DNA of 64,000 bases from NCBI GenBank assembly GCA_964587105.1, contig CAZPKG010000011.1, forward strand, positions 28,309 to 92,308, read 5' to 3'. This document shows, in pieces, positions 131-63,497 of this stretch (the first letter of the stretch is position 1; every line of letters starts with the position of its first letter). The stretch is from an uncultured Alphaproteobacteria bacterium. Lineage in GTDB: Bacteria; Electryoneota; RPQS01. The position numbers and the translations under genes were made by a program. The notes beneath the pieces were generated by a model. That model had not been told where the DNA came from. It ran no database searches and was given only the letters and a program-made list of their open reading frames with translations.

Positions 131-163
131 TCCCCCCTGCTCGCGGGGGGGGGGTTAGGGGGG
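131..163. repeat. REP-like hairpin, family 1 (C6-loop-G6-N-TTAG-G6/7)
   Basis: cccccctgctcgcggggggggggttaggggggg. Member of a family with at least 12 copies in the window. Confidence 0.8.
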
Positions 164-187
164 GTCTGTTGACGCTGGTTACATGTG

Positions 188-2592: not shown

Positions 2593-2604
2593 CTCTCTTC
2601 CGGC

Positions 2605-2660
2605 CTTCCTCCGTTCACGGGGGGATCAGAAGGGGGTCGCCTTCCGCACTCCCCCCTCGA
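2605..2660. repeat. Repeat family CTTCCTCCGTTCACGGGGG... (copy 2)
   Basis: ccttcctccgttcacggggggatcagaagggggtcgccttccgcactcccccctcga. Confidence 0.6.
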
Positions 2661-2777
2661 CGGCACTCGCTCAAAACCCAATCATCTGGTCTTCTCCCGC
2701 AGTTCATTTGTGATGATCGCTCATCACTCGCTCGCGCACGACCAATACTCCAATCGGAGCGATACTCCTTCAAGTCT

Positions 2778-2905
2778 CCCCCAAAAGTTCGCCGCGAACT
2801 TTGGGGGAACTAAGGGGGGCTGCCTTCAAAAAATCAACCTCTAACAAAGAAAGGAAGCACCAAAGCAAAGGCGCATGCGCCAGAGCGAGAGGTGCTTGAC
2901 AAGCA
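2778..2905. repeat. Composite REP element (family-1 hairpin plus ~85-bp tail ending GCGAGAGGTGCTTGACAAGCAC), copy A
   Basis: ccccc-aaaagttcgccgcgaacttt-ggggg-aactaagggggg, then ctgccttcaaaaaatcaacc...gcgccagagcgagaggtgcttgacaagcac. Ends 3 nt before the ATG of the DUF2190-like gene. Sister copy at 7169-7262. Confidence 0.75.
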
Positions 2906-2908
2906 CAC

Positions 2909-3352
2909 ATGGCATCAACCTACAAAGTCAACAACGATGGCGCAGGAGCAAATCTCCTGCTCACCTTCGAAGTAGATACAACTTCAAACAAAGACTTCAC
3001 GTGGACCGACATTGACAATAATCTCGTCGCCGCGACAATGTCTGACAACAACAAGGTCGGCATGGGCTCGGCAGGTTCGCGTCTCATCGGCAAAGTCATC
3101 TCCGTTTCCGACGAACTTGCAGTCGGTACAGCCGTACCCGCACTATGCACCGTGCAAGTCACTGGTGTCGCACGTTTCCTCTACTCAGGAACCGCACCCA
3201 GCGTCGGCAACAAAGTCGAATGTGACGGCACCGGCAAAGTCCGCAAAGCCGTCACTCTCACCGATGTCCCCGCCGGCGGCACCGCTCAACGCGGCTTAGT
3301 CATCGCCGTCGATACCTCCGCCACAACCTGCGATGTCTTACTCGATGCGTAA
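2909..3352 (+). CDS. Phage head-associated protein, DUF2190-like
   Basis: 147 aa, Gly/Val/Thr-rich beta pattern (LIGKVISVSD...VTGVARF...GNKVECDGTGKV...GLVIAV) typical of DUF2190 proteins that precede major capsid genes. Sits immediately upstream of the capsid gene. Confidence 0.4.
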   Translation: MASTYKVNNDGAGANLLLTFEVDTTSNKDFTWTDIDNNLVAATMSDNNKVGMGSAGSRLIGKVISVSDELAVGTAVPALCTVQVTGVARFLYSGTAPSVGNKVECDGTGKVRKAVTLTDVPAGGTAQRGLVIAVDTSATTCDVLLDA

Positions 3353-3369
3353 CTCCGATTTCCCCCCAG

Positions 3370-3400
3370 TCCTCTGGGGGGATTAAGGGGGGTAAAATAC
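3370..3400. repeat. REP-like hairpin, family 1
   Basis: ccccccagtcctctggggggattaagggggg. Confidence 0.8.
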
Positions 3401-3460
3401 CAAATCGCGGCCAACCATTTCAAACAACTGCGTTAGCGCAATCAGTCCAGCGACACGCTG

Positions 3461-3577
3461 GTTGTCATCCTGAAGGCCGCTGCGGCTGAAGGATCTCGTG
3501 GCGGGGTAACGCGCGTCATGCGCTTATCGAATATGAAGCCGCTTGACAAGATCCTTCACTTCGTTCAGGATGACAAC
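3461..3577. mobile_element. 117-bp MITE-like element with terminal inverted repeats GTTGTCATCCTGAAG / CTTCAGGATGACAAC (copy 1)
   Basis: gttgtcatcctgaagg...ttcaggatgacaac. No ORF. Second copy in the same orientation at 4756-4871. The two copies bracket the capsid gene. Confidence 0.7.
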
Positions 3578-3580
3578 ACG

Positions 3581-3620
3581 AATTTCCTATTTCCAATTTC
3601 ACATTTCCAATTTCAAAAAC
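3581..3620 (+). promoter_or_regulatory. ATTTC-repeat leader element abutting the start codon (capsid gene)
   Basis: aatttcctatttccaatttcacatttccaatttcaaaaacATG. Confidence 0.5.
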
Positions 3621-4691
3621 ATGACTCTCGACTTTTCCCAAGCCTACACTCTGCGCGACAAAATCCAAGAACACTCGCGCTCCACTAATCTCGCGCTCTA
3701 TTCCGAAGCGCAAGAGCGCGGCATGACCTTCACTGAGTTGCTCGAAGAACTCGACCCGTCACCGCGTAAGCCCGACGGCCAGCTCGATGCGCCGCTTGAT
3801 GCCTTCGAGCGCCAGCTCTTTCTCGCCGATATCTCTTTTGCCGGCCGCAACGCCACCACGCTCGAACAATTCTTGAGCGGCCCCGGATTGATTCTCGCGC
3901 CTGAATATGTTTCGCGCGAAATCCGCAAAGGCTACAAGATGGTGCAAGACCCCGAAGAACTCGTGGCCGCCATCGTTCCCGAACGCGGACCCACGGTCAC
4001 GCCGCTCTATATCAAAACTGATTTCGCCAAGAAGTCTCAGCGGCGCAACGATAGCGCCGCCTATCCCGTGGTCAAGCTCGCCTATCGTCAAAAAGAGGCG
4101 GGCATGATTGATCGCGGGCGTCAATTTGATTTCAGCTATCGCATCCTGAAAAATCAAAAGCTCGCTGAGTTCCGCGTTTTCCTCTGGTGGATCGGCGCGC
4201 AATTGGCCAACGATGAAATTTCTGAAATCTACAACATCGTCATTAACGGAGACGGCACCAGCCCCGCTCCTTCAAATTCCTTCAACGGAACCGGCGGCAC
4301 GTTTGCCTATACCGACTTGGTTCATCTCGCAATGGCCTTTGATGGTCCCGCTCGTATGACGCATTTGCTCGGCGCCAAATCCGACATCGAAGCCGTCTTG
4401 AAAATCAACGAACTGCAAGATGCGCAAGCCTTTCAAGGTGGAGCATTCAACAACACCGGGGACTACCGCACATTCCTGCCGCTGAATACAAGATTGGTTG
4501 CAGTCGAAGGAGCCACGGCCACCAAGTTCGCCGCGCTCGATCATCGTTTCGCCATTCGTGAATCTGTCGCTCAACCTCTGCTCATCGAAGCCGAAAAAAT
4601 CATCTCGCACAAACTCGAATCAGCCGTCATCTCCAAAGAATCTGTTTACACCATCATGGTTGATGAAGGTATCGCCATGTCAGATTACTAA
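3621..4691 (+). CDS. Phage major capsid protein (HK97-fold family, putative)
   Basis: 356 aa, counting from the internal ATG at 3621 (the upstream part of the listed ORF lies inside a MITE copy). Length, composition and context (DUF2190-like gene upstream, terminase downstream) fit a major capsid protein. Family assignment is by resemblance, not a motif proof. Confidence 0.55.
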   Translation: MTLDFSQAYTLRDKIQEHSRSTNLALYSEAQERGMTFTELLEELDPSPRKPDGQLDAPLDAFERQLFLADISFAGRNATTLEQFLSGPGLILAPEYVSREIRKGYKMVQDPEELVAAIVPERGPTVTPLYIKTDFAKKSQRRNDSAAYPVVKLAYRQKEAGMIDRGRQFDFSYRILKNQKLAEFRVFLWWIGAQLANDEISEIYNIVINGDGTSPAPSNSFNGTGGTFAYTDLVHLAMAFDGPARMTHLLGAKSDIEAVLKINELQDAQAFQGGAFNNTGDYRTFLPLNTRLVAVEGATATKFAALDHRFAIRESVAQPLLIEAEKIISHKLESAVISKESVYTIMVDEGIAMSDY

Positions 4692-4699
4692 GCCAATCT

Positions 4700-4746
4700 G
4701 CTCGCCGAGCGGGGATTAAGCGCGAAGCGCGGTTCCCCGCCGGAAT
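4700..4746. repeat. Repeat family GATTCCGGCGGGGAACCGCTGCGCTTAATCCCCGCTCGGC (reverse orientation)
   Basis: gccgagcggggattaagcgcgaagcgcggttccccgccggaat. Forward copies at 29100-29156 and 60628-60667. Confidence 0.7.
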
Positions 4747-4755
4747 GTACAACGT

Positions 4756-4871
4756 TTTGTCATCCTGAAGCCGCTGCGGCTGAAGGATCTCGTTGCGGGG
4801 TTACGCACGCTATGCGATTACCAAATACGATGCCGCCAAACAAGATCCTTCACTGCGTTCAGGATGACAAC
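4756..4871. mobile_element. MITE-like element with GTTGTCATCCTGAAG TIRs (copy 2)
   Basis: ttgtcatcctgaagccgctgcggctgaaggatctcgttgcgggg...ttcaggatgacaac. About 85% identical to copy 1. Confidence 0.7.
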
Positions 4872-4888
4872 CATTGCCCCTCCGATCT

Positions 4889-4930
4889 CCCCCCAAAGTT
4901 CGCCGCGAACTTTGGGGGGATTAAGGGGGG
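4889..4930. repeat. REP-like hairpin, family 1
   Basis: ccccccaaagttcgccgcgaactttggggggattaagggggg. Same loop as the 2778 copy. Confidence 0.8.
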
Positions 4931-4935
4931 TGGCT

Positions 4936-4966
4936 ATCCTTTCCTATTTCTCATTTCTCATTTCCC
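4936..4966 (+). promoter_or_regulatory. ATTTC-repeat leader element abutting the start codon
   Basis: atcctttcctatttctcatttctcatttcccATG, immediately after a family-1 REP. Confidence 0.5.
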
Positions 4967-5332
4967 ATGAAACCCTCTCTTGCATACGCTCTCGCCAGTC
5001 AACCGTTGGTCTTTCTGACTTTCAGCGGAACACTTGGCACATCATCCGTCTATCTACCCGGCCCCGGCGGAATTGCCGCCGACGGAATTCCCATTCCGTT
5101 CGCGGGCACGCTCTCACAACTGACCGTATTCGACGGTTCAACAACTTTTGCCGATACCGACAACATCACATTTTCCGCTAACAACCGCATCAGCGTATAT
5201 TGCCAAAACATCGGTGGATCGTTCACTGTGAAAGTCCGTTTGAACGGAGTCTCCACAACACTCCAAACGGCGTCTGTCCCGCTTAGTTCGACTCTCCAAG
5301 TCACCGTCGGTTTTGCCATTAACCGCGTATAA
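4967..5332 (+). CDS. Hypothetical protein in phage head module (beta-rich)
   Basis: 121-aa ORF immediately preceded by a REP plus ATTTC-repeat leader. No recognisable family. Confidence 0.4.
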   Translation: MKPSLAYALASQPLVFLTFSGTLGTSSVYLPGPGGIAADGIPIPFAGTLSQLTVFDGSTTFADTDNITFSANNRISVYCQNIGGSFTVKVRLNGVSTTLQTASVPLSSTLQVTVGFAINRV

Positions 5333-5341
5333 GGAGCGCAC

Positions 5342-6166
5342 ATGTCTTTCACATCTCTTGCTATCGTCCGCAAACATCTTGTTGCGGGCAACTTGCCTTC
5401 TCAACGAATTGAAGACGTCCGCGTTACGCTAAACGGGATTGCCGACGTATCTCTGCCGCACTTCAATTTGCTCCAAGACTTCGCGGTCGTGAAGCGGCTC
5501 GCTTCTGACAAAGCGACATATGAAACCGGTGTGCTGCTGACCAATGAAGATGAAATCAGTCTTTCCAACAAGAATCTCGAAAGAGGCAGCGTCGTCGTCG
5601 CAAATGACCTCGCCTTAAGCGAAATCTTCGACGAGGAGTTTGATTACCGCGTAAACCACGAATCCGGTTCGGTCAAACGGCTCGCTACTGGTGCGATACC
5701 AAATTCATTTCCCGCTGTGGTTTGGTATAACTACTATGAGGTTTTTGAACCCTCCATTGACTACGAATTGGACTACGTTGCCGGAGCAATCCGCCGAGTT
5801 TCCGGAAGTAACATTCCCGACGGAGCGAACATCCTTGTGGACTACACCGTCGCGCAAGGCGCCGCCGAAAACGATCTGATCGAGCAATCGATCATTGAAG
5901 CTGAAGACATAATCGTGCGGGCACTCCGCGAAGGTTACAACTCAGCTTCGACCGATCAAGGACTAAAATCCGGTGCGACATACCTGACTCTCGCGATTGT
6001 CGCGCGCGGAATGGCGGCCTTGATGCTTACTCGCAATGTGGGCAGCGACGCAAATTCCCGCGCCCGCGAATGGCAGCAGCTTTCCGACAAATGGAGTGGC
6101 GCCGCTTGGAGCGTGCTTGCGTCCTTTGTCACTCCGCATTTCATGCACTCTAACACTATCGAATAA
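5342..6166 (+). CDS. Hypothetical phage structural/assembly protein
   Basis: 274-aa ORF tightly packed between the capsid-side genes and the terminase. Its stop at 6164-6166 is followed 1 nt later by the ATG of the next ORF. Confidence 0.45.
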   Translation: MSFTSLAIVRKHLVAGNLPSQRIEDVRVTLNGIADVSLPHFNLLQDFAVVKRLASDKATYETGVLLTNEDEISLSNKNLERGSVVVANDLALSEIFDEEFDYRVNHESGSVKRLATGAIPNSFPAVVWYNYYEVFEPSIDYELDYVAGAIRRVSGSNIPDGANILVDYTVAQGAAENDLIEQSIIEAEDIIVRALREGYNSASTDQGLKSGATYLTLAIVARGMAALMLTRNVGSDANSRAREWQQLSDKWSGAAWSVLASFVTPHFMHSNTIE

Positions 6167-6167
6167 A

Positions 6168-6371
6168 ATGGACGTCTTCTCCGAAGAGAGCAAACAGCAA
6201 GTTCTCGAAACTCTGTTCAAAATTGCAACGGACAACAAAAGCGCAAGCGTCCCGGCAATCAAACTCTATCTCGAACTCGCAAATGAACGTCCTTCCGCCG
6301 AAACACTTACCACTGAACAGGCTCTGGAAATCCTAAGAGAAGCACAATCAGAAAATGAGTCGTCGTCCTGA
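6168..6371 (+). CDS. Small helical protein, candidate terminase small subunit
   Basis: 67 aa (MDVFSEESKQQVLETLFKIATDNK...) directly upstream of the large terminase. Assignment by position only. Confidence 0.3.
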   Translation: MDVFSEESKQQVLETLFKIATDNKSASVPAIKLYLELANERPSAETLTTEQALEILREAQSENESSS

Positions 6372-6396
6372 ACAAAGTGAAAGTCCTCTCTGGTTT

Positions 6397-6424
6397 CCCC
6401 CCGCGAGCGGAGGGATTAAGGGGG
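6397..6424. repeat. REP-like hairpin, family 1 (degenerate)
   Basis: ccccccgcgagcggagggattaaggggg, followed by cttccgaaaaatttt as in the composite tail. Confidence 0.7.
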
Positions 6425-6506
6425 CTTCCGAAAAATTTTCCACTCCACCACTACAAAACATCCGCGTCAGCGCAATCAGTCCAGCGGCACGCTGGTTCTT
6501 CGCGGC

Positions 6507-6525
6507 GGCACCCGCTGCGGGTGCC
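6507..6525. repeat. Perfect palindrome GGCACCCGCTGCGGGTGCC (family 3)
   Basis: 9-bp stem with a 1-nt loop. Copies at 21267, 36849 and 59701. Confidence 0.8.
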
Positions 6526-6570
6526 CCATGCGCAACAATCGATTCTCCCTTCAGGTCTCCACCAAGCACA

Positions 6571-8007
6571 ATGACAAAAGACCAATTCCAAGAACTCCTC
6601 CGCTGTACTCGAAATCCGTGGTATTTTCTCACGAACTATGTCAAAACCCAAGACCCTGTCAAAGGAACCTCGGCCTATCCTGATTTCGATTACTTATGTG
6701 AGTTGACATATCTTGCTCTCACTCAACGCTATCTGCTTGTTCCCAAATCAAGACAGATGATGGTCACATGGAGTATGGTTAGCCTGTTCGTATGGCGGGC
6801 GCTATTCAAACAGCCCGGTGTCTATCTTTTCCTTTCGCGCAACGAGCGTTGTGCCGAAGAGCTTTTGGACAGAGCGCGTTTTATCATAACGCATTTGCCC
6901 GAGTTCATGCGGCCTCAACTAACAACAAACAACAAATCCGAAATTGAATTCGGTGGCTTGCACTCGCGCCTGCTTTCGCTTCCGGCAACTCCCGACGGCC
7001 CGCGAATGTACTCACCCACTGCCGTCTTTTGGGATGAGATGGCCTTCACTCCGTTTGATTCGCAAATTTGGACTGCCCTGAAACCGGCTATCAGCAGCGG
7101 CGGATCGTTCGTAGGCGTATCATCTTCCGGCGGTGCACAAAATCTTTTCGCAAAGTTCTGCTCTGATTCCCCCCTGCTTGCGGGGGGGCAAGGGGGGGTG
7201 CTTCCGAAAAAAGCCAACCAACAATCCAAAGAATCAGCGCCAGCGCGAGAGGTGCTTAACAAGCACTTTCACATCCATAAAATCCACTACACCAATCACC
7301 CCGACCGCAACAACGAAGAATGGCGACTCAGCGAATCGCGCGGCCTGTCACAAAGCCAATGGGATAGAGAACAGGAAATCTCGTTTGAGTCCTTTGATGA
7401 TCTGGTCTATTCCGAGTTCGATCCGGTTGTGCATCTGCTCAAAGAGGAATTTCATCCGCGCAAAGAGTGGCCGCTCTATCGCGCAATTGATTTCGGCTTT
7501 CGCAAGCCGTTTGCATTGTGGATTCAGAAACTCCCTTCCGGTGAATATGTCGTGTTTGACGAATGGGAAGGGAGAGATTGCACAACCGAAGCCATGTATG
7601 CTTCTATCACTCGCACGGACATCCTCTTCGGTCTCAAGGAGTCTGATTACCTATGGTCCGCCTGTGACCCTGCCGGAGCCGCCGCGCAAGACAGCGGGAT
7701 TTCACCGGTGGATTACCTTGCTCGCAACGGCATGAAATTACGTTATCGTCCGTCCCGCATTTTGCCCGGCGTCGAATGCGTGAAAGCTTCGTTGCGTGAC
7801 GCCGCCGGAAGAGTTTCGCTCTTTTTCTCCCCACGCTGCCAAAAACTCATCCAAGACATGCGAAGTTATAAATGGAACGCCGCCAATGACGAACCCATCA
7901 AAGACGGCGTCAGCGATCACTCTCTCGATGCGCTCCGCTATTTCTTCGTCAACCTTGAAGGCTCCGAAGATCGAGCTCCCGCCGCGCCGCGCATTGCACG
8001 GCTATAA
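6571..8007 (+). CDS. terL: Phage terminase large subunit (Terminase_6-like), with an in-frame repeat-element insertion
   Basis: Deviant Walker A KSRQMMVT and Walker B VFWDEMAF. SSSGG ATPase motif III. RNaseH-like nuclease acidic residues (AIDFGF, CDPAG, DHSLDALRY). True start is the ATG at 6571, because the upstream part of the listed ORF is translated repeat DNA. A ~38-aa insert at 7166-7262 is encoded by a REP composite element. Confidence 0.8.
   Translation: MTKDQFQELLRCTRNPWYFLTNYVKTQDPVKGTSAYPDFDYLCELTYLALTQRYLLVPKSRQMMVTWSMVSLFVWRALFKQPGVYLFLSRNERCAEELLDRARFIITHLPEFMRPQLTTNNKSEIEFGGLHSRLLSLPATPDGPRMYSPTAVFWDEMAFTPFDSQIWTALKPAISSGGSFVGVSSSGGAQNLFAKFCSDSPLLAGGQGGVLPKKANQQSKESAPAREVLNKHFHIHKIHYTNHPDRNNEEWRLSESRGLSQSQWDREQEISFESFDDLVYSEFDPVVHLLKEEFHPRKEWPLYRAIDFGFRKPFALWIQKLPSGEYVVFDEWEGRDCTTEAMYASITRTDILFGLKESDYLWSACDPAGAAAQDSGISPVDYLARNGMKLRYRPSRILPGVECVKASLRDAAGRVSLFFSPRCQKLIQDMRSYKWNAANDEPIKDGVSDHSLDALRYFFVNLEGSEDRAPAAPRIARL
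7169..7262. repeat. Composite REP element, copy B, inserted in-frame inside the large terminase ORF
   Basis: cccccctgcttgcggggggg-caaggggggg, then tgcttccgaaaaaagccaacc...gcgccagcgcgagaggtgcttaacaagcac. Colinear with the 2778-2905 copy. Translated as ...CSDSPLLAGGQGGVLPKKANQQSKESAPAREVLNK... without stops. Confidence 0.8.
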
Positions 8008-8011
8008 AAAA

Positions 8012-8038
8012 GAGCGACCCGATTACTCGGGCCGCTCT
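8012..8038 (-). terminator. Rho-independent terminator (hairpin plus T-run on minus strand) after paralog A1, also at 3' end of terL
   Basis: aaaaa-gagcgacccg-attact-cgggccgctc. Reads as hairpin plus UUUUU on the minus transcript. Confidence 0.6.
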
Positions 8039-8057: not shown

Positions 8058-10577
8058 CTATTTACTCTCGTCGCGATTGATCAATACGGGATTCTGATTA
8101 GTTAGACCGGGCGTCGGCGGAGTACAATCCAGAGTCAGAACGAAGATTACTTCGTTTGATGGATTGGGTGCGAAAAACGTGTTGGCGAACGAACCCGCCG
8201 GGGTATAAAGCGACCAATCCGCCGAGTACGATGTCGGGAAAACTGCGCTCGGATTCGTTGACCACCAAAGTGTGATGACACCCGCCTCCTGTTGATGCCA
8301 TCTTACAGTGTAGGCATCCGCAGGGGTGGCAAGCATATTAATCGTCACGCTGTCCGGAGCCGGACACGGCGGAGTAAGACAGAAGGCAAAATCATACGGC
8401 GGCTGCGATGAAGTCCCGTCTCCAAACGGCGAGGTTACCCATGTCCACGGACAGTCCGTATCACCTACCTTTGCCACGCTCATTAAGCCGCTCGGAATGC
8501 CGCAGGGCGGATGAATTTCCACGTCGTATTGGGATAAATACCTCGAGTTGAAATATAGATCCGGCAGCAGCGTTCCAGTTGCCGTAACGGTGTACTCGCA
8601 CGTGTTTCCGCCGTCTGTAAAGTAAAGACGAAATGTCTCAAACTCGCTGCAAGTACCCGTAAAACCCCAAAACCGCACGGCGCCGACTGGCTCCGGCGTG
8701 ACGTAATTGTCATACTGAATCTGACTGAAATCGATATGTGACGTGAATGCTTGCGGAGACTCCGAGTTCATCGCTGGCAGTTGACCGACCACACTACGGT
8801 TGCCGCATTCTGCGCGGATCGGGCACGGCGTATCGCAAGTAACACCCTCCGTGAACAAGCCGCCCATTGTTTGGCACATAGACAGACTCGTGATCTCGCA
8901 GCCGGGCGACTGAGGATCGCCATAACAGCAGCGGCCGTAACAAGAACTTACCGTGAGTTCAAATTGACCACAGTCAGTGTGATAGGCTTCGACAGTTAGA
9001 TAGTAGCTACCCGAGCTTAAATAAGCACAGTTAATCGCGGATAATCCTGCGAAACCACAACCGTCGTCATCCTCATAAAAAGGAGAGCCGTCGCATGTGG
9101 GCGTCAAGTATATATAACTGTCCCAAAAGTCGTTGCCATTGCAAAGTGAAAATCTCCACTCCCCATTAGACGGAATGTTCACGAAGAATGTGTAATCTTC
9201 ACTCGGCCGAAGGGGATTGTTGTTGCCTGCGCCGCACGTATTCGCCACAGCCGTGCCCGGTGCCTGCAGGAAACCGTCTATCCGGCAACCGCTGCAAGGA
9301 ATGGCGTTAACCCGCACACGGTATTCGCGGAAATCAGGGGCAATATTCAGCGCATCCGTTGCCAGAAATAGAGTGTAATCGCCCGGCTGCACACATGGAA
9401 CTCTGTAGGTTAAAGTCGAACAAGGAATGGCCTGAAACTGGTTCAAGTACGTTGTGTAGTTGCAATCGAAAGAAGGAAAACTGTTGAGTTGCAACCGAAT
9501 AGGAACTTCGGTTCTGAGCGTGATGTCCAGTGAACATGGCTCCAGAATTTGGAAATAGTACCAATCCTGATCATGTTGGCCATTCGTGGCCCACGTACGG
9601 CCGCAAACAGTCTGAAAAAGACTGATCCCCTGAATGGAATTATATCCGTTACAGAAGTAATTGCAATCGAAAACAGGATCACCACCTATTTCCTCAAACG
9701 CGCATTCAGGAACGTCATTCGGCTGACACTCAATGCTGCAATTGCCTGTGATGTTCAAAACATAACTGCCCGCACTGCTGTTGTATCCATCCACGATGAT
9801 GTAATAAACCTGTCCGGCAGTAAGGTACAACGACAGATAAGATTGAAGACTGGGACTATTGTCGTCGTTACAGCCAACTGAAAAGATACCCGGGCATGAG
9901 CCCAATGTGTGCACATACAGATAGGTGTCATACGATGAACCCATCAGTGAAATAGCGTAAAAGTCGGTTATCGTCGGAGTAAACTCATAGACTACGTCAG
10001 GTGCAAAGGTCGAGTTACACGCGGAAATAGGATTGAAATCGTTTGCGCGTCCCACAGTTGTTCCCGTATCGGTGTAAGGAATTCCGGTGATGACCGTGGC
10101 CGGACAATTGTCACTTCCTTGATCAAGCGGATTGCGTTCGCGATTCTCCGGCCGTTGCTGATACAGTGCATTCAATTGTTCTTTCAAACTTGCAAAGGTC
10201 ACTTCGTCAACCGACTGAGACTGCGCGCCGCCACGAGCCTGAAGCTCGAGTTCTCGAATCTGCTCTTCAAGCGGGGTCAATTCAGTTGGGCGAATTAACG
10301 CACCGGCTTCAAAGCCTCCGTCAACCCGACCGGACTGGAGATCGTGCACCACATTACCGGAGTGTCTCTTGACTGGTGGAAGCAGCTCCTCAATTCGTGT
10401 CATCCAAGCCGGATCAGGCGTCTCCCCTGTAGCTTTTGCGTTAGCAATCAACTCTTTAAGCTCAGAAATTTCAGCCTTTGCGTCGCGAAATGCGTCCGGC
10501 TGTGTAGCGCTCAAATCGGCTGCAACAACGAAACTATTACAGCAAAGAACAACAATCGTGAACAGCAGTTTCTTCAT
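8058..10577 (-). CDS. Giant secreted Cys-rich multidomain protein, paralog A1 (PPC-type domains, C-terminal Fn3-like domain)
   Basis: Signal peptide MKKLLFTIVVLCCNSFVVAA. Conserved module ...RPENRERNPLDQGSDNCPATVI. PPC-like domain (DVVYEF...YDTYLYV...CNDD...AGQVYYIIVDGY). C-terminus WWSTNPSAVFP...VLTLDC is Fn3-like. RBS GGAGAcgatATG. Confidence 0.8.
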   Translation of the reverse strand: MKKLLFTIVVLCCNSFVVAADLSATQPDAFRDAKAEISELKELIANAKATGETPDPAWMTRIEELLPPVKRHSGNVVHDLQSGRVDGGFEAGALIRPTELTPLEEQIRELELQARGGAQSQSVDEVTFASLKEQLNALYQQRPENRERNPLDQGSDNCPATVITGIPYTDTGTTVGRANDFNPISACNSTFAPDVVYEFTPTITDFYAISLMGSSYDTYLYVHTLGSCPGIFSVGCNDDNSPSLQSYLSLYLTAGQVYYIIVDGYNSSAGSYVLNITGNCSIECQPNDVPECAFEEIGGDPVFDCNYFCNGYNSIQGISLFQTVCGRTWATNGQHDQDWYYFQILEPCSLDITLRTEVPIRLQLNSFPSFDCNYTTYLNQFQAIPCSTLTYRVPCVQPGDYTLFLATDALNIAPDFREYRVRVNAIPCSGCRIDGFLQAPGTAVANTCGAGNNNPLRPSEDYTFFVNIPSNGEWRFSLCNGNDFWDSYIYLTPTCDGSPFYEDDDGCGFAGLSAINCAYLSSGSYYLTVEAYHTDCGQFELTVSSCYGRCCYGDPQSPGCEITSLSMCQTMGGLFTEGVTCDTPCPIRAECGNRSVVGQLPAMNSESPQAFTSHIDFSQIQYDNYVTPEPVGAVRFWGFTGTCSEFETFRLYFTDGGNTCEYTVTATGTLLPDLYFNSRYLSQYDVEIHPPCGIPSGLMSVAKVGDTDCPWTWVTSPFGDGTSSQPPYDFAFCLTPPCPAPDSVTINMLATPADAYTVRWHQQEAGVITLWWSTNPSAVFPTSYSADWSLYTPAGSFANTFFAPNPSNEVIFVLTLDCTPPTPGLTNQNPVLINRDESK

Positions 10578-51086: not shown

Positions 51087-51464
51087 CTACTTCTTCCACC
51101 CGAACTTTTTAAAATCCACTTTGTCTTTGTCGTTGAACTCGACGCCTTCTTGCTCTAAGATTTTGCGTTGAATATTGGCGGCCATTGGATTACTGCGAAT
51201 GGAAATGTGGCCTTGCGCATTGATGACTCGCTGCCATGGCACATTCTCGATATCGCTTTCGCTCAAAGCATGTAAGGCATAACCGACCATGCGGGCGTGT
51301 CGTTCAAGGCCGGCTACTCGTGCGACTTGGCCGTAACTTGCCACTTTGCCGCGCGGGATCTTTTTCACCGTGGCGTAGATGCGTTTGTAAAGAGATTCGG
51401 GGCCGCTCTTGACCCCCCCTAACCCCCCCGCGCGACGCGGAGGGGGACCAGATTTAGACGTCAT
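51087..51464 (-). CDS. Alkyltransferase-like protein (ATL; MGMT-family DNA-binding domain lacking the catalytic Cys)
   Basis: VPWQRVINAQG corresponds to the Ogt PCHRV motif with Trp replacing Cys, as in ATL proteins. IPRGKVASYGQVA helix-turn-helix region. The first ~17 codons are the translation of a REP element. Confidence 0.7.
   Translation of the reverse strand: MTSKSGPPPRRAGGLGGVKSGPESLYKRIYATVKKIPRGKVASYGQVARVAGLERHARMVGYALHALSESDIENVPWQRVINAQGHISIRSNPMAANIQRKILEQEGVEFNDKDKVDFKKFGWKK
51413..51446. repeat. REP-like hairpin, family 1 (reverse orientation), lies within ATL coding sequence
   Basis: ccccccctaacccccccgcgcgacgcggaggggg. Confidence 0.75.
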
Positions 51465-52350
51465 AGTTCAAGAGTTTGTAGATCATTAGAGCGCGGACGG
51501 TCAGTTCGCGGTCTTGAGCATTTTCTTCGAGCGGGTAGTACCACGAGAGATGCGCGGGAGTTTCTTCGAGGTCGAAGTGCCACATGCCGTCGGCGTCCTG
51601 CTGGACTTCCAGTTCTTCATAAAGCCATTGCAGATGCGGAACACCGGCCACGACTCCGGCGCGCGCACCGTGCTCCAAATCGAATAACATGCGCACGGGT
51701 GCGGCAAGGTATTTGTCTTTATCGGGAATCGTGAAGCGGGTGTTTTCCGGAAGCAGAACTTCGGGTTGCGTCTCGACTTCATTCAAGAGTTTGGTGAGTA
51801 GGGCGCGCTTGTTCAGAACTTCATTGACGTTCGGCTGCCACCAGACCATCGCATTATAGGCCGGAACGGTCGGAGCGGGAGATTTCTTGTCGGAAAACCA
51901 ATGCTGCCATTCGAGTTTTACAATTTCCAAATAGGATTCGAGCAGAGGGTGCGTGCCGCGCGTGGCGCGAGCAAGCATGTGCAAACAGACGTCCCGCACA
52001 AGCAAGCGTTGATTGGATTGCAACTCCCAAGTTACGTTTTCTTGCGCGAGTGTGGGAAGCACAACAAAATCCAAAGCGCGTTTGACACAACCGTGATCTT
52101 CGGCTCCGGCCTCGCACAGCCACAACACTGAGGCCGCTGTGTGCGAAAGTCTATCATTGAAGGAACCGTTTGCCAATTGCTCAGTGGCGAGTTTCACGAC
52201 GCGCGGATGTTTCAAAACGGCGGCTTGGGCTGACGAAGTTTCAATCCAACTCTCATCACGGCCTAACACGTCGCGCAAAATTCGGTAACGAAGTAAGGGG
52301 CCGCTCTCTTTGAAGAGCTGTTGGAATGATGGTGGGAGATCGGGGATCAC
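51454..52350 (-). CDS. Hypothetical protein (GTG start), overlaps ATL gene start by 11 nt
   Basis: 298-aa ORF preceded by an ATTTC-repeat leader and a REP element. No recognised domain. Confidence 0.5.
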   Translation of the reverse strand: MIPDLPPSFQQLFKESGPLLRYRILRDVLGRDESWIETSSAQAAVLKHPRVVKLATEQLANGSFNDRLSHTAASVLWLCEAGAEDHGCVKRALDFVVLPTLAQENVTWELQSNQRLLVRDVCLHMLARATRGTHPLLESYLEIVKLEWQHWFSDKKSPAPTVPAYNAMVWWQPNVNEVLNKRALLTKLLNEVETQPEVLLPENTRFTIPDKDKYLAAPVRMLFDLEHGARAGVVAGVPHLQWLYEELEVQQDADGMWHFDLEETPAHLSWYYPLEENAQDRELTVRALMIYKLLNYDV

Positions 52351-52353
52351 TTG

Positions 52354-52390
52354 AGGAAAATAGGAAATGAGAAATTAGAAATAGGAAAGC
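52354..52390 (-). promoter_or_regulatory. ATTTC-repeat leader element abutting a GTG start (minus strand)
   Basis: Minus-strand reading: ctttcctatttctaatttctcatttcctattttcctcaaGTG. A REP lies directly upstream. Confidence 0.5.
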
Positions 52391-52395
52391 GGAAG

Positions 52396-52436
52396 CCCCC
52401 CTTAATCCCCCCAAATACGCAGACGAATTTGGGGGG
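52396..52436. repeat. REP-like hairpin, family 1 (reverse orientation)
   Basis: ccccccttaatccccccaaatacgcagacgaatttgggggg. Confidence 0.8.
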
Positions 52437-61334: not shown

Positions 61335-61380
61335 AAGAGTTTTAGTATGAGAATCTGGTTGGGGCGAGTCGTGCGAAGAC

Positions 61381-61408
61381 CCCCCTTAGTCCCCCCGCTC
61401 GCGGGGGG
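61381..61408. repeat. REP-like hairpin, family 1 (reverse orientation)
   Basis: ccccccttagtccccccgctcgcgggggg. Confidence 0.8.
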
Positions 61409-62069: not shown

Positions 62070-62100
62070 CCCCCCGGTCTTCCGGGGGGATTAAGGGGGG
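62070..62100. repeat. REP-like hairpin, family 1
   Basis: ccccccggtcttccggggggattaagggggg. Left flank of the DUF559 gene. Confidence 0.8.
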
Positions 62101-62463
62101 TCAAGCTCTATTGAATTCGAGAATGATTGAATTAAGAACTGATTCTATCGACTTGAGAATTGCGCCGTTAGGAAATCGAACAACGCGAAATCCAAGCGCT
62201 TGAAGTGACTCGGTACGACGCGCATCATATTCCCGTTGTTCATCACTTGCATGTGTTGGTCCATCCACTTCGATCACCAACATGTGTTCAAGTGAAACGA
62301 AATCCACGATGTACTTGCCTATTGCATGTTGGCGACGAAATTTTGTGCCCAACTGCTCCGACCTAAGCTTGTACCACAAAGCCTTTTCGGCTTGTGTCAT
62401 TGCACGGCGATAATGTTTCGCACGAATTAGATTCTTAAGAGGGATCTTGTCGTAGTCTCTCAT
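62101..62463 (-). CDS. DUF559 / Vsr-like PD-(D/E)xK endonuclease-domain protein
   Basis: FRRQHAIGKYIVDF ... LVIEVDGPTHASDEQREYDARRTESLQALGFRVVRF matches the DUF559 core. Flanked on both sides by inverted REP copies. Confidence 0.7.
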   Translation of the reverse strand: MRDYDKIPLKNLIRAKHYRRAMTQAEKALWYKLRSEQLGTKFRRQHAIGKYIVDFVSLEHMLVIEVDGPTHASDEQREYDARRTESLQALGFRVVRFPNGAILKSIESVLNSIILEFNRA

Positions 62464-62487: not shown

Positions 62488-62519
62488 CCCCCCCTAACCC
62501 CCCCGGAGGACCGGTGGGG
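62488..62519. repeat. REP-like hairpin, family 1 (reverse orientation)
   Basis: cccccccctaacccccccggaggaccggtgggg. Right flank of the DUF559 gene, inverted relative to 62070-62100. Confidence 0.75.
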
Positions 62520-63466: not shown

Positions 63467-63497
63467 CCCCCCCTAACCCCCCCGCTCGCGGAGGGGG
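63467..63497. repeat. REP-like hairpin, family 1 (reverse orientation)
   Basis: ccccccctaacccccccgctcgcggaggggg. Ends 4 nt before the ATG of the YraQ-like gene. Confidence 0.8.

Follow-up and report, generated by a model that had tools for sequence, protein, structure and literature searches.

A terminase gene that carries within its reading frame what appears to be the spacer between two other genes raises two questions: is the enzyme still able to work, and how did the spacer come to be there? The gene is terL, which encodes the terminase large subunit and lies on the forward strand at 6571-8007 of a 64,000-nucleotide (nt) stretch of contig CAZPKG010000011.1 (assembly GCA_964587105.1, positions 28,309 to 92,308). 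This stretch, referred to here as the window, is a piece of the chromosome of an uncultured bacterium with type IX secretion, and it carries a phage-type head and packaging cluster. Overall, we believe it probable that an intergenic cassette was copied in frame into terL, where it is translated as a tolerated loop and persists as a neutral passenger, at a site that is a hot spot for such events in one terL clade.

The insert runs from 7161 to 7266 on the forward strand (about 105 nt) and is composed, in this order, of CTCTGATT, C6, TGCTTGC, G7, CAA, G7 and then TGCTTCCGAAAAAAGCC-AACCAACAATCCAAAGAATCA-GCGCCAGCGCGAGAGGTGCTTAACAAGCAC. The first of these (7161-7168) corresponds to the C(T/C)(T/C)(T/C)GAT(T/C)T flank that stands ahead of the C-run in most intergenic copies. 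The hairpin C6-TGCTTGC-G7 follows at 7169-7188 (C6 at 7169-7174, G7 at 7182-7188) and is identical in 19 of 20 positions to an intergenic copy at 132-151, while CAA and the second G-run (7189-7198, with G7 at 7192-7198) make up, together with 7182-7188, a G3N1G3N3G3N1G3 motif. Next come TGCTTCCGAAAAAAGCC (7199-7215), a spacer whose CTTCYGAAAAA is also found after the G-run in copies at 2820 and 6426 and in related loci (L087:991, L088:1556 and L008:2544; loci are given by our own numbers throughout), then AACCAACAATCCAAAGAATCA (7216-7236) and the 30-mer GCGCCAGCGCGAGAGGTGCTTAACAAGCAC (7237-7266), the last two forming a right-hand segment of 51 nt (7216-7266) that is shared with the terL insert of L001. 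The 30-mer closes on the palindrome GTGCTT-AAC-AAGCAC (7252-7266), a hairpin that normally adjoins the start codon in the leaders of these genes. As the initial annotation of this DNA had claimed, the terL frame stays open across the whole segment, which translates to CSDSPLLAGGQGGVLPKKANQQSKESAPAREVLNK. Its figure of about 38 added amino acids, however, was too high: the 35 element-derived codons (C197-K231, 7159-7263) take the place of a native linker of about six residues, of the VTGDND type seen in L008, for a net gain of 29 amino acids over insert-free homologues, and the span between the anchors GVSxxxG (motif III) and HYxxHP is 63 residues in the window as against 34-35 in 50 loci.

The source of the sequence is apparent from a second copy upstream. 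The leader of a virion-structural gene (2909-3352), at 2778-2906 on the forward strand, has the same parts in the same order as the terL insert, namely a C6/G7 hairpin, a second G-run, the CTTCCGAAAAAA spacer (here as CTGCCTTCAAAAAA) and the 30-mer, after which it runs into acATG, the copy ending two bases before the start codon. The two 30-mers agree in 28 of 30 positions and are the only occurrences in the window, where shuffled sequence gives an expectation of 0.00, so the colinearity noted at the outset holds. Five leaders from different genomes carry the last 15 nt of the 30-mer, GTGCTT-NNN-AAGCAC, with 0-3 nt between it and the ATG that follows: two belong to the 2909 gene (window and L006), two to terL itself (L001 and L088) and one to the homologue of the open reading frame (ORF) at 4967 in L008. 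The L088 terL leader keeps the same architecture over 118 nt. The insert has at one end the hairpin usually found after a stop codon and at the other the hairpin usually found before a start codon, and it therefore reproduces a whole intergenic spacer of this cluster, minus only the stop and the start.

The hairpin/G-run unit at the left of this cassette belongs to a family that is abundant in the window. There are 12 copies, 11 of them intergenic and often lying 2-25 nt past a stop codon, and a pattern of C-run, loop, G-run and AGGGGG finds 15 matches at 11 sites, again with 0.00 expected. The consensus is CTCTGATYT, C5-6, a variable palindrome, G6-7, (A/G)TTA(A) and G6-8, and 11 of the 12 copies run in the same direction as the flanking genes. 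Hairpin interiors fall into subfamilies that recur both within and between genomes (AAAGTTCGCCGCGAACTTT, AGTCCTCT, GCGAGC/TGCTYGC and TCCGCGTCGCGCGG). Canonical copies have TAA or TAG between the G-runs, and thus a stop in one frame, where the terL copy has CAA. Four of the intergenic copies are in the head cluster (2778, 3362, 4889 and 6397), six are between host-type genes at 51-63 kb and one is at 132. Taken together, the intergenic spacers of this genome are assembled from short repeated modules and constitute a new family of modular intergenic cassettes. The modules are a GC-clamped hairpin (C5-7, variable palindrome, G5-7), a second G-run and the CTTCYGAAAAA spacer, joined in the head cluster only by a leader end, GCGCCAGCG...GTGCTT-NNN-AAGCAC, abutting the start codon.

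That the interrupted gene encodes a terminase is supported by several lines of comparison. Matches of the 478-residue product to Pfam Terminase_6N/6C are weak, those to the PHROG terminase large subunit families are clear, and a profile of 36 homologues finds the ATPase domain of T4 gp17 at E=1e-19. An AlphaFold (AF2) model has a mean predicted local distance difference test score (pLDDT) of 84.6; in Foldseek it matches full-length T4 gp17 and the D6E, Sf6 and HK97 TerL proteins, and it superimposes on 2o0h with a root-mean-square deviation of 3.0 over 284 columns. Walker B (VFWDEM) and motif III, the C-motif SSS (codons at 7120-7128), align with T4 gp17, SSS falling on TTT 285-287 in the profile alignment, and both are invariant in the 36-sequence alignment, as is expected of an ASCE ATPase fold. 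The nuclease aspartates D307, D366, D449 and D453 are likewise invariant, as expected of an RNase H-like nuclease, and the PHROG and Pfam matches also cover this part of the protein. The Walker A position is occupied by PKSRQMMVTW (6745-6771, codons P58-W67), which aligns with SRQLGKT of T4 gp17 minus the glycine and the lysine, so that the canonical G/A-x4-GK[ST] is absent. This odd Walker A is invariant in all 36 homologues, including the distant ones of alignment A2, and is thus a trait of the lineage and not a sign of decay. Some lambda-like terminases use an upstream lysine in Walker A, and by analogy this TerL family might use K59 instead of the canonical lysine. All homologues, as well as the gene call of an independent assembly (the MTKDQF equivalent), place the start at ATG 6571. 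The mechanically called ORF at 6355-8007 overshoots terL by 72 codons, since the spacer at 6355-6570, including a degenerate hairpin/G-run copy, happens to be without a stop in that frame.

Where does the extra segment lie in the folded protein? The initial annotation rightly recognized SSS as motif III but placed the insert directly after it, in the hinge between ATPase and nuclease. Instead, the insert begins about ten residues past motif III, after a short helix (residues 192-197) and ahead of the strand FHIHKIHY, and it lies some 70 residues upstream of the nuclease domain, which starts at about residue 300. Residues 200-229 of the model have pLDDT below 50, with confident flanks on both sides, and the model of P0007, an insert-free natural homologue that is 78% identical, keeps the same fold and the same order of secondary structure with a short, confident loop in place of the disordered one. 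Alignment with T4 gp17 puts the site at about residues 300-312, where T4 also has extra residues relative to the family profile. On the strength of homologue alignment and model, then, the insert is predicted to be a disordered surface loop within the ATPase domain and not an ATPase-nuclease hinge, and the folds and catalytic residues of both domains are predicted to be untouched by it.

Comparison with orthologous terminases, some of them free of inserts and others with different repeats in the same loop, changes the character of the finding from a rare case to a clade-wide hot spot. Loop length could be scored in 73 terL loci, 25 of them members of the clade of the window gene (at least 53% identity; a monophyletic group in a neighbour-joining tree that lacks support values) and 48 outside it. 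All 48 outside loci have 0-1 extra residues; clade members have 0-39. Hairpin/G-run units fill the loop in the window, L007, L009, L016 and L088, and in L012 there are two units, oriented oppositely. In L003, L016-L018 and L020-L024 it is occupied by TCATCCC heptamers in tandem, which translate as SSLIPHPSS and are also seen ahead of start codons in spacers, L002 being one example. In L002 and L013 the loop holds a GTCATCCTGA...GGATC palindrome, read as HPERSEG...SFRMTE, which is also present in a window spacer near 3464. Other loops contain further low-complexity sequence. Nothing is inserted in L008 and L014, close relatives at 73-74% identity, in P0007, likewise a close relative, or in the distant homologues. 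The L016 insert has, like that of the window, the full architecture of a spacer, with hairpin, G-run and pyrimidine-rich heptamer leader. Repeats of at least four unrelated classes thus occupy the same loop, which makes it a hot spot of turnover within this terL clade. The closest relatives of this clade in a viral contig collection reach only 43% identity and lack the insert, and they are therefore uninformative about it.

Comparisons at single loci bear on the origin of this turnover. The clearest case for local copying is L012, where one terL hairpin (CCCCCCGCAGAGTGCGGGGGG) has an exact counterpart in the spacer some 250 nt upstream of that gene (5750) and is one base off another about 110 nt upstream (5888), and where the second, oppositely oriented hairpin matches another subfamily of the same locus. 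In the window, a 48-nt hairpin module stands as an indel relative to L001, beside the common 51-nt right part, and L008 lacks a further 39 nt; these junctions are clean, with microhomology in the C-run only and no duplication. From these alignments, the window insert appears to have been assembled stepwise. L088 and L009 have homologous hairpins at the codon position of the window hairpin, and the G7-CAA-G7 core is read as GGQGG in the window and L088 and, in another frame, as GGKGG in L009. Reading of the same core in different frames implies that the peptide itself is not selected, and that selection merely keeps the frame open. For this reason the term "exapted", used at first for the insertion, is not supported.

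The gene as a whole is nonetheless under purifying selection. L087, from an independent assembly (GCA_054403255.1), differs from the window terL at 48 of 1437 nt (3.3%), with an insert that is 100% identical; the differences comprise 36 synonymous and 11 nonsynonymous codon changes, giving a ratio of nonsynonymous to synonymous rates (dN/dS) of 0.08. The identical insert in a second assembly and the low dN/dS argue against an assembly artefact and against a dead gene. Of the 25 scorable clade members, 24 have an unbroken ORF, and the exception, L006, is a long-read assembly with frameshifts elsewhere in the gene. Judging from these sequences, the terminase of the head cluster is most likely functional, and the suggestion that a terminase can tolerate a repeat-encoded insertion gains support from the insert-free homologues, the intergenic family, the disordered loop and the purifying selection alike. 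Along the gene, synonymous divergence from L087 is mosaic (6571-8007 against 1136-2572), with a synonymous rate (dS) of 0.28 over codons 1-196 and 0.03 over codons 232-478, a pattern that suggests a recombination breakpoint near the insert.

The pathway that we favour can be outlined as follows. One spacer cassette would have been copied into the ATPase surface loop just past the motif III helix, and this copying was probably templated, by recombination, repair or gene conversion from a neighbouring spacer, and was not a classical transposition. We propose a templated event because of the matches to local subfamilies and because target-site duplications and terminal repeats are absent. Only copies that lack a stop in the terL frame and have a length divisible by three would survive. 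The ribosome would then read through the cassette to give 35 low-complexity, disordered residues, and with purifying selection persisting on the gene, the insert would be a tolerated passenger that brings no new protein function. Once resident, the repeat could act as a landing pad for further replacement, extension and deletion in the clade descended from that event, drawing on the repeat subfamilies of each genome. Both the route of copying and the neutrality of the insert are what we infer from the comparisons above.

At the same time, several points weigh against this pathway. In the 51-nt segment that the window has in common with L001, 47/51 positions agree, compared with 76% for the gene as a whole; among its third-codon positions 15 of 17 agree, and elsewhere 55% do (binomial P = 0.004). 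Such conservation at silent sites would not be seen in a purely neutral passenger unless recombination had been recent. The test is a post hoc one, and 15/17 is reached by about 3% of 17-codon windows. Three of the four differences are nonsynonymous, which indicates either conservation at the nucleotide level or a recent exchange of the segment. Recent conversion within the L001 genome does not explain the conservation, because the L001 terL copy is nearer to the window copies than to L001's own upstream variant. The signs expected of a mobile element are also wanting: neither target-site duplication, nor terminal inverted repeats, nor a transposase was seen, although no search was aimed at transposases in the window. 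The number of independent events is uncertain, given that the tree carries no support values. Finally, the sorting of element copies in other loci into coding and non-coding is crude and unreliable, since repeats without stops inflate spurious ORFs, and we have left those counts unused.

The silent-site figures, together with the affinity of the L001 copy for that of the window, are what one would expect if the cassette were kept inside terL as a nucleic-acid signal whose translation is incidental, an explanation that we regard as unlikely but would give some weight. The palindrome might be bound by a regulator or, as a pac-like site, by the small terminase, or it might act in RNA as an operator hairpin, the G-rich hairpin or a G-quadruplex might serve as a pause or processing site, and GTGCTTAACAAGCAC would be the candidate target for the small terminase or for regulators of the cluster. 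In a more specific version, to which we assign slightly less likelihood, the full leader cassette was recruited in terL as a cis-acting site and kept at the nucleotide level with the peptide irrelevant; it may be a pac-like site, an operator shared with the head-operon leaders, or a hairpin/G-quadruplex switch that throttles terL. A signal would fit the fixed position of the palindrome by start codons across genomes and the pairing retained among its variants, in which 60/60 stem cells are paired, two changes giving G.U and one being a double compensatory change; this covariation is weak, however, being reached in 34 of 500 shuffles. It would also fit the three-tetrad G-quadruplex that ViennaRNA, run with quadruplex terms, predicts for G7-CAA-G7 in terL (-26.0 against -21.2 kcal/mol for the hairpin), canonical G6...G6 spacer copies giving no such prediction. 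Against it, the close relatives L007, L009 and L088 lack the 30-mer in terL, and L008, L014 and P0007 lack any insert, all with terL intact; the silent-site conservation is small as well as post hoc; and in folding energy the terL copy shows no gain over dinucleotide shuffles (whole copy, z = -1.4; hairpin by itself, z = 0.0), so that thermodynamic stability alone is not evidence, the 2778 leader (z = -3.2) being the only one that stands out.

The colinearity of the insert with an entire spacer, from the post-stop hairpin to the hairpin adjoining the ATG, could alternatively be a relic of gene fission and re-fusion, in which a spacer with stop and start once split terL into two cistrons with assembling products, and both codons were later lost. 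The CAA in place of TAA or TAG and the full spacer architecture of the L016 insert are in keeping with such a history, yet no split at the site occurs among the 25 scorable clade members, the break in the sole split gene examined (P0063/L169) lies downstream of the insert by about 50 codons, and in the outgroups as well as in some clade members the loop is short and uninterrupted. More steps are needed than for a simple in-frame insertion, and we consider this history improbable. More doubtful still is the proposal, made as the alternative in the initial annotation, that terL is an inactivated pseudogene of a decaying prophage that happens to remain open. The atypical Walker A (no GK[ST]), the lack of a recognized portal gene nearby and the absence of the clade from the viral contig collection above 43% identity might be read in this way, but a dN/dS of 0.08 against a strain 3.3% diverged, catalytic residues that are invariant in 36 homologues, an odd Walker A that is family-wide and the intact ORF in nearly all clade members speak against decay. 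As for an assembly chimera, short and GC-rich repeats are able to mislead assemblers, and this possibility too had been raised. We give it next to no credence, because L087 carries the identical insert between flanks that differ at 48 sites, L088 and L009 have homologous hairpins at the same codon and L001 has the same right-hand part. A tolerated, translated copy of an intergenic cassette thus remains the explanation that we prefer.

Other roles for the element were considered and set aside. The hairpins are not followed by a T-run, and a terminator scan did not call them as intrinsic terminators. A canonical intrinsic terminator is present on the reverse strand at 8011-8038 (a 12-bp stem followed by a T-run), between terL and the convergent gene 8058-10577, so this organism uses ordinary terminators and the hairpin/G-run units are something else. 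A candidate internal promoter, TTAACA-16-TAAAAT at 7256-7283, derives in part from the 30-mer and was rejected; the count of such motifs is within chance (5 vs 3.1), the -10 part is not kept in L001, and no forward-strand gene follows downstream. Internal translation from the in-frame GTG at 7252 was judged unlikely, as the purine-rich stretch abuts it without spacing, the GTG of real leaders has no consistent frame relative to the ATG, and there is no in-frame ATG, GTG or TTG for more than 45 codons downstream. Rfam 15 gave no family at the gathering threshold over the whole window and none in a permissive scan of 2600-7400, the lone sub-threshold match having E=0.66. No tRNA or tmRNA was found by search, and an attachment-site explanation therefore falls. 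With its 105 nt, no in-frame stop, no domain match and no Rfam match, the insert does not have the features of an intein, an intron or a translational bypass. Copies with two G7 runs that fit G3N1G3N3G3N1G3 are found at 7182-7198, 63467-63483, 62488-62504, 51413-51429 and 132-164.

How does this insertion compare with known repeats? Rickettsia palindromic elements (RPEs) are described as short palindromic repeats inserted in frame in coding genes, with a peptide that is compatible with the host protein (Ogata et al. 2000, as described in PMC10969869), and the latter article describes more sporadic in-frame insertions of enterobacterial repetitive intergenic consensus (ERIC), BOX and other repeats resembling MITEs (miniature transposable elements with inverted repeats). 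RPEs are the closest analogue of the terL case, which is similar in that an in-frame palindromic repeat adds a tolerated peptide, but the resemblance is functional only. The sequence family and the bacterial lineage are unrelated, and the unit here is 50-105 nt compared with about 150 bp. RPEs are found in many unrelated genes, with families that encode a conserved peptide, while here one gene and one loop are occupied in 64 kb, and one and the same DNA is translated in a frame that varies with the lineage. The insert, moreover, reproduces a whole intergenic leader. There is a likeness also to the repetitive extragenic palindromic (REP) sequences and bacterial interspersed mosaic elements (BIMEs) of proteobacteria, and to intragenic ERIC and MITE copies: these too are abundant, short, imperfectly palindromic and mostly extragenic, form subfamilies, lie between operon genes and sometimes enter ORFs, and the 12 copies in 64 kb with none expected, 11 of them intergenic, accord with this description. 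REP/BIME elements differ in having a GTAG-type head, which is absent here and in the place of which the conserved flank is CTCTGATYT; the unit described here also has a fixed second G-run after the hairpin and an orientation that follows the genes in 11 of 12 copies. No REP-associated tyrosine transposase turned up, the window not having been searched specifically for transposases. MITEs proper are marked by terminal inverted repeats and target-site duplications, and the element has no terminal repeats beyond its hairpin. The T4 gp17 loop at about 300-312 has the same position and is also variable in length, but its extra residues are ordinary protein, whereas here copied intergenic repeats turn over within one clade. 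In the searchable literature we found no report of the element or its translated peptides, nor of REP or other repeat inserts or hypervariable loops in terminases.

The cluster in which terL lies comprises the virion structural protein (2909-3352), the major capsid protein (3543-4691), two small or Ig-like proteins and a 67-amino-acid candidate small terminase (6169-6371). Intergenic hairpin/G-run copies within it stand on the forward strand at 3362-3392, 10 nt past the stop of the 2909-3352 gene; at 4889-4930, between the capsid gene and the ORF at 4967; and, as the degenerate twelfth copy, at 6397-6425 in the spacer between the small and large terminase genes, where a half palindrome, AAGCAC (6564-6569), lies just ahead of the terL ATG. 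The copy at 132-164 (forward strand) has the hairpin closest to that in terL. Those between host genes are at 51413-51446, 52396-52436, 61380-61408, 62488-62519 and 63467-63497 on the reverse strand and at 62070-62100 on the forward strand, the last being the sole reversed copy in the window; adjoining genes encode a methylguanine methyltransferase DNA-binding domain, a phosphoribosyltransferase and proteins sorted by type IX secretion. A 120-codon ORF at 62101-62463 (reverse strand) is flanked by the two oppositely oriented copies 62070-62100 and 62488-62519. Other spacer modules occur near 3435-3500 and 6469-6495, and in L002 upstream of its 2909 homologue. One of these, AGCGCAATCAGTCCAGCGRCACGCTGG, holds the palindrome CCAGCG-N3-CGCTGG, and the unit GTCATCCTGAAGG...GAAGGATCTC is the element class that fills the terL loop in L002 and L013. 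The window spacers 4931-4966 and 52350-52395 contain pyrimidine-rich TTTCTCA/TTTCCTA repeats, and not the TCATCCC heptamer itself.

The head cluster (2909-8007) is syntenic in L001, L002, L006, L010 and L012, on chromosomal contigs of up to 2.9 Mb, and among these clusters capsid protein identity is 93-94% and that of TerL only 72-75%. The cluster could be a long-resident cryptic prophage or a domesticated module resembling a gene-transfer agent. Downstream of terL and convergent with it, an array of paralogous genes on the reverse strand (8058-50795) encodes proteins of 400-1100 amino acids and has many internal DNA repeats; most of these proteins are without a Pfam match, and a few have trypsin-like peptidase, PPC, lamin-tail, fn3 or type IX secretion sorting domains. 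A like array follows terL in L001, L006, L087 and L088. In P0002 the called start lies inside the leader palindrome (MLNKHT...), and where annotations of these genomes show P/G-rich extensions at the N-terminus, the extra residues are likely to be translated repeats.

Regardless of the specific route by which the cassette entered terL, this head cluster most likely has a functional terminase, and the odd segment of the enzyme is not an assembly error. In-frame insertion of a repeat is itself a known type of event; what this case adds, with modest interest, is that the insert equals a complete gene leader, and that the same loop is a hot spot for repeats across a clade. For annotators this carries a warning that low-complexity P/G-rich segments and spurious N-terminal extensions may be translated repeats, and for engineering it points to a permissive insertion site in the ATPase domain of TerL. 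In this context, the locus offers a case study of non-coding repeats seeding disordered protein segments, and a natural example, from a poorly known bacterial lineage, of an intergenic cassette that is predicted to be read through as a protein loop.

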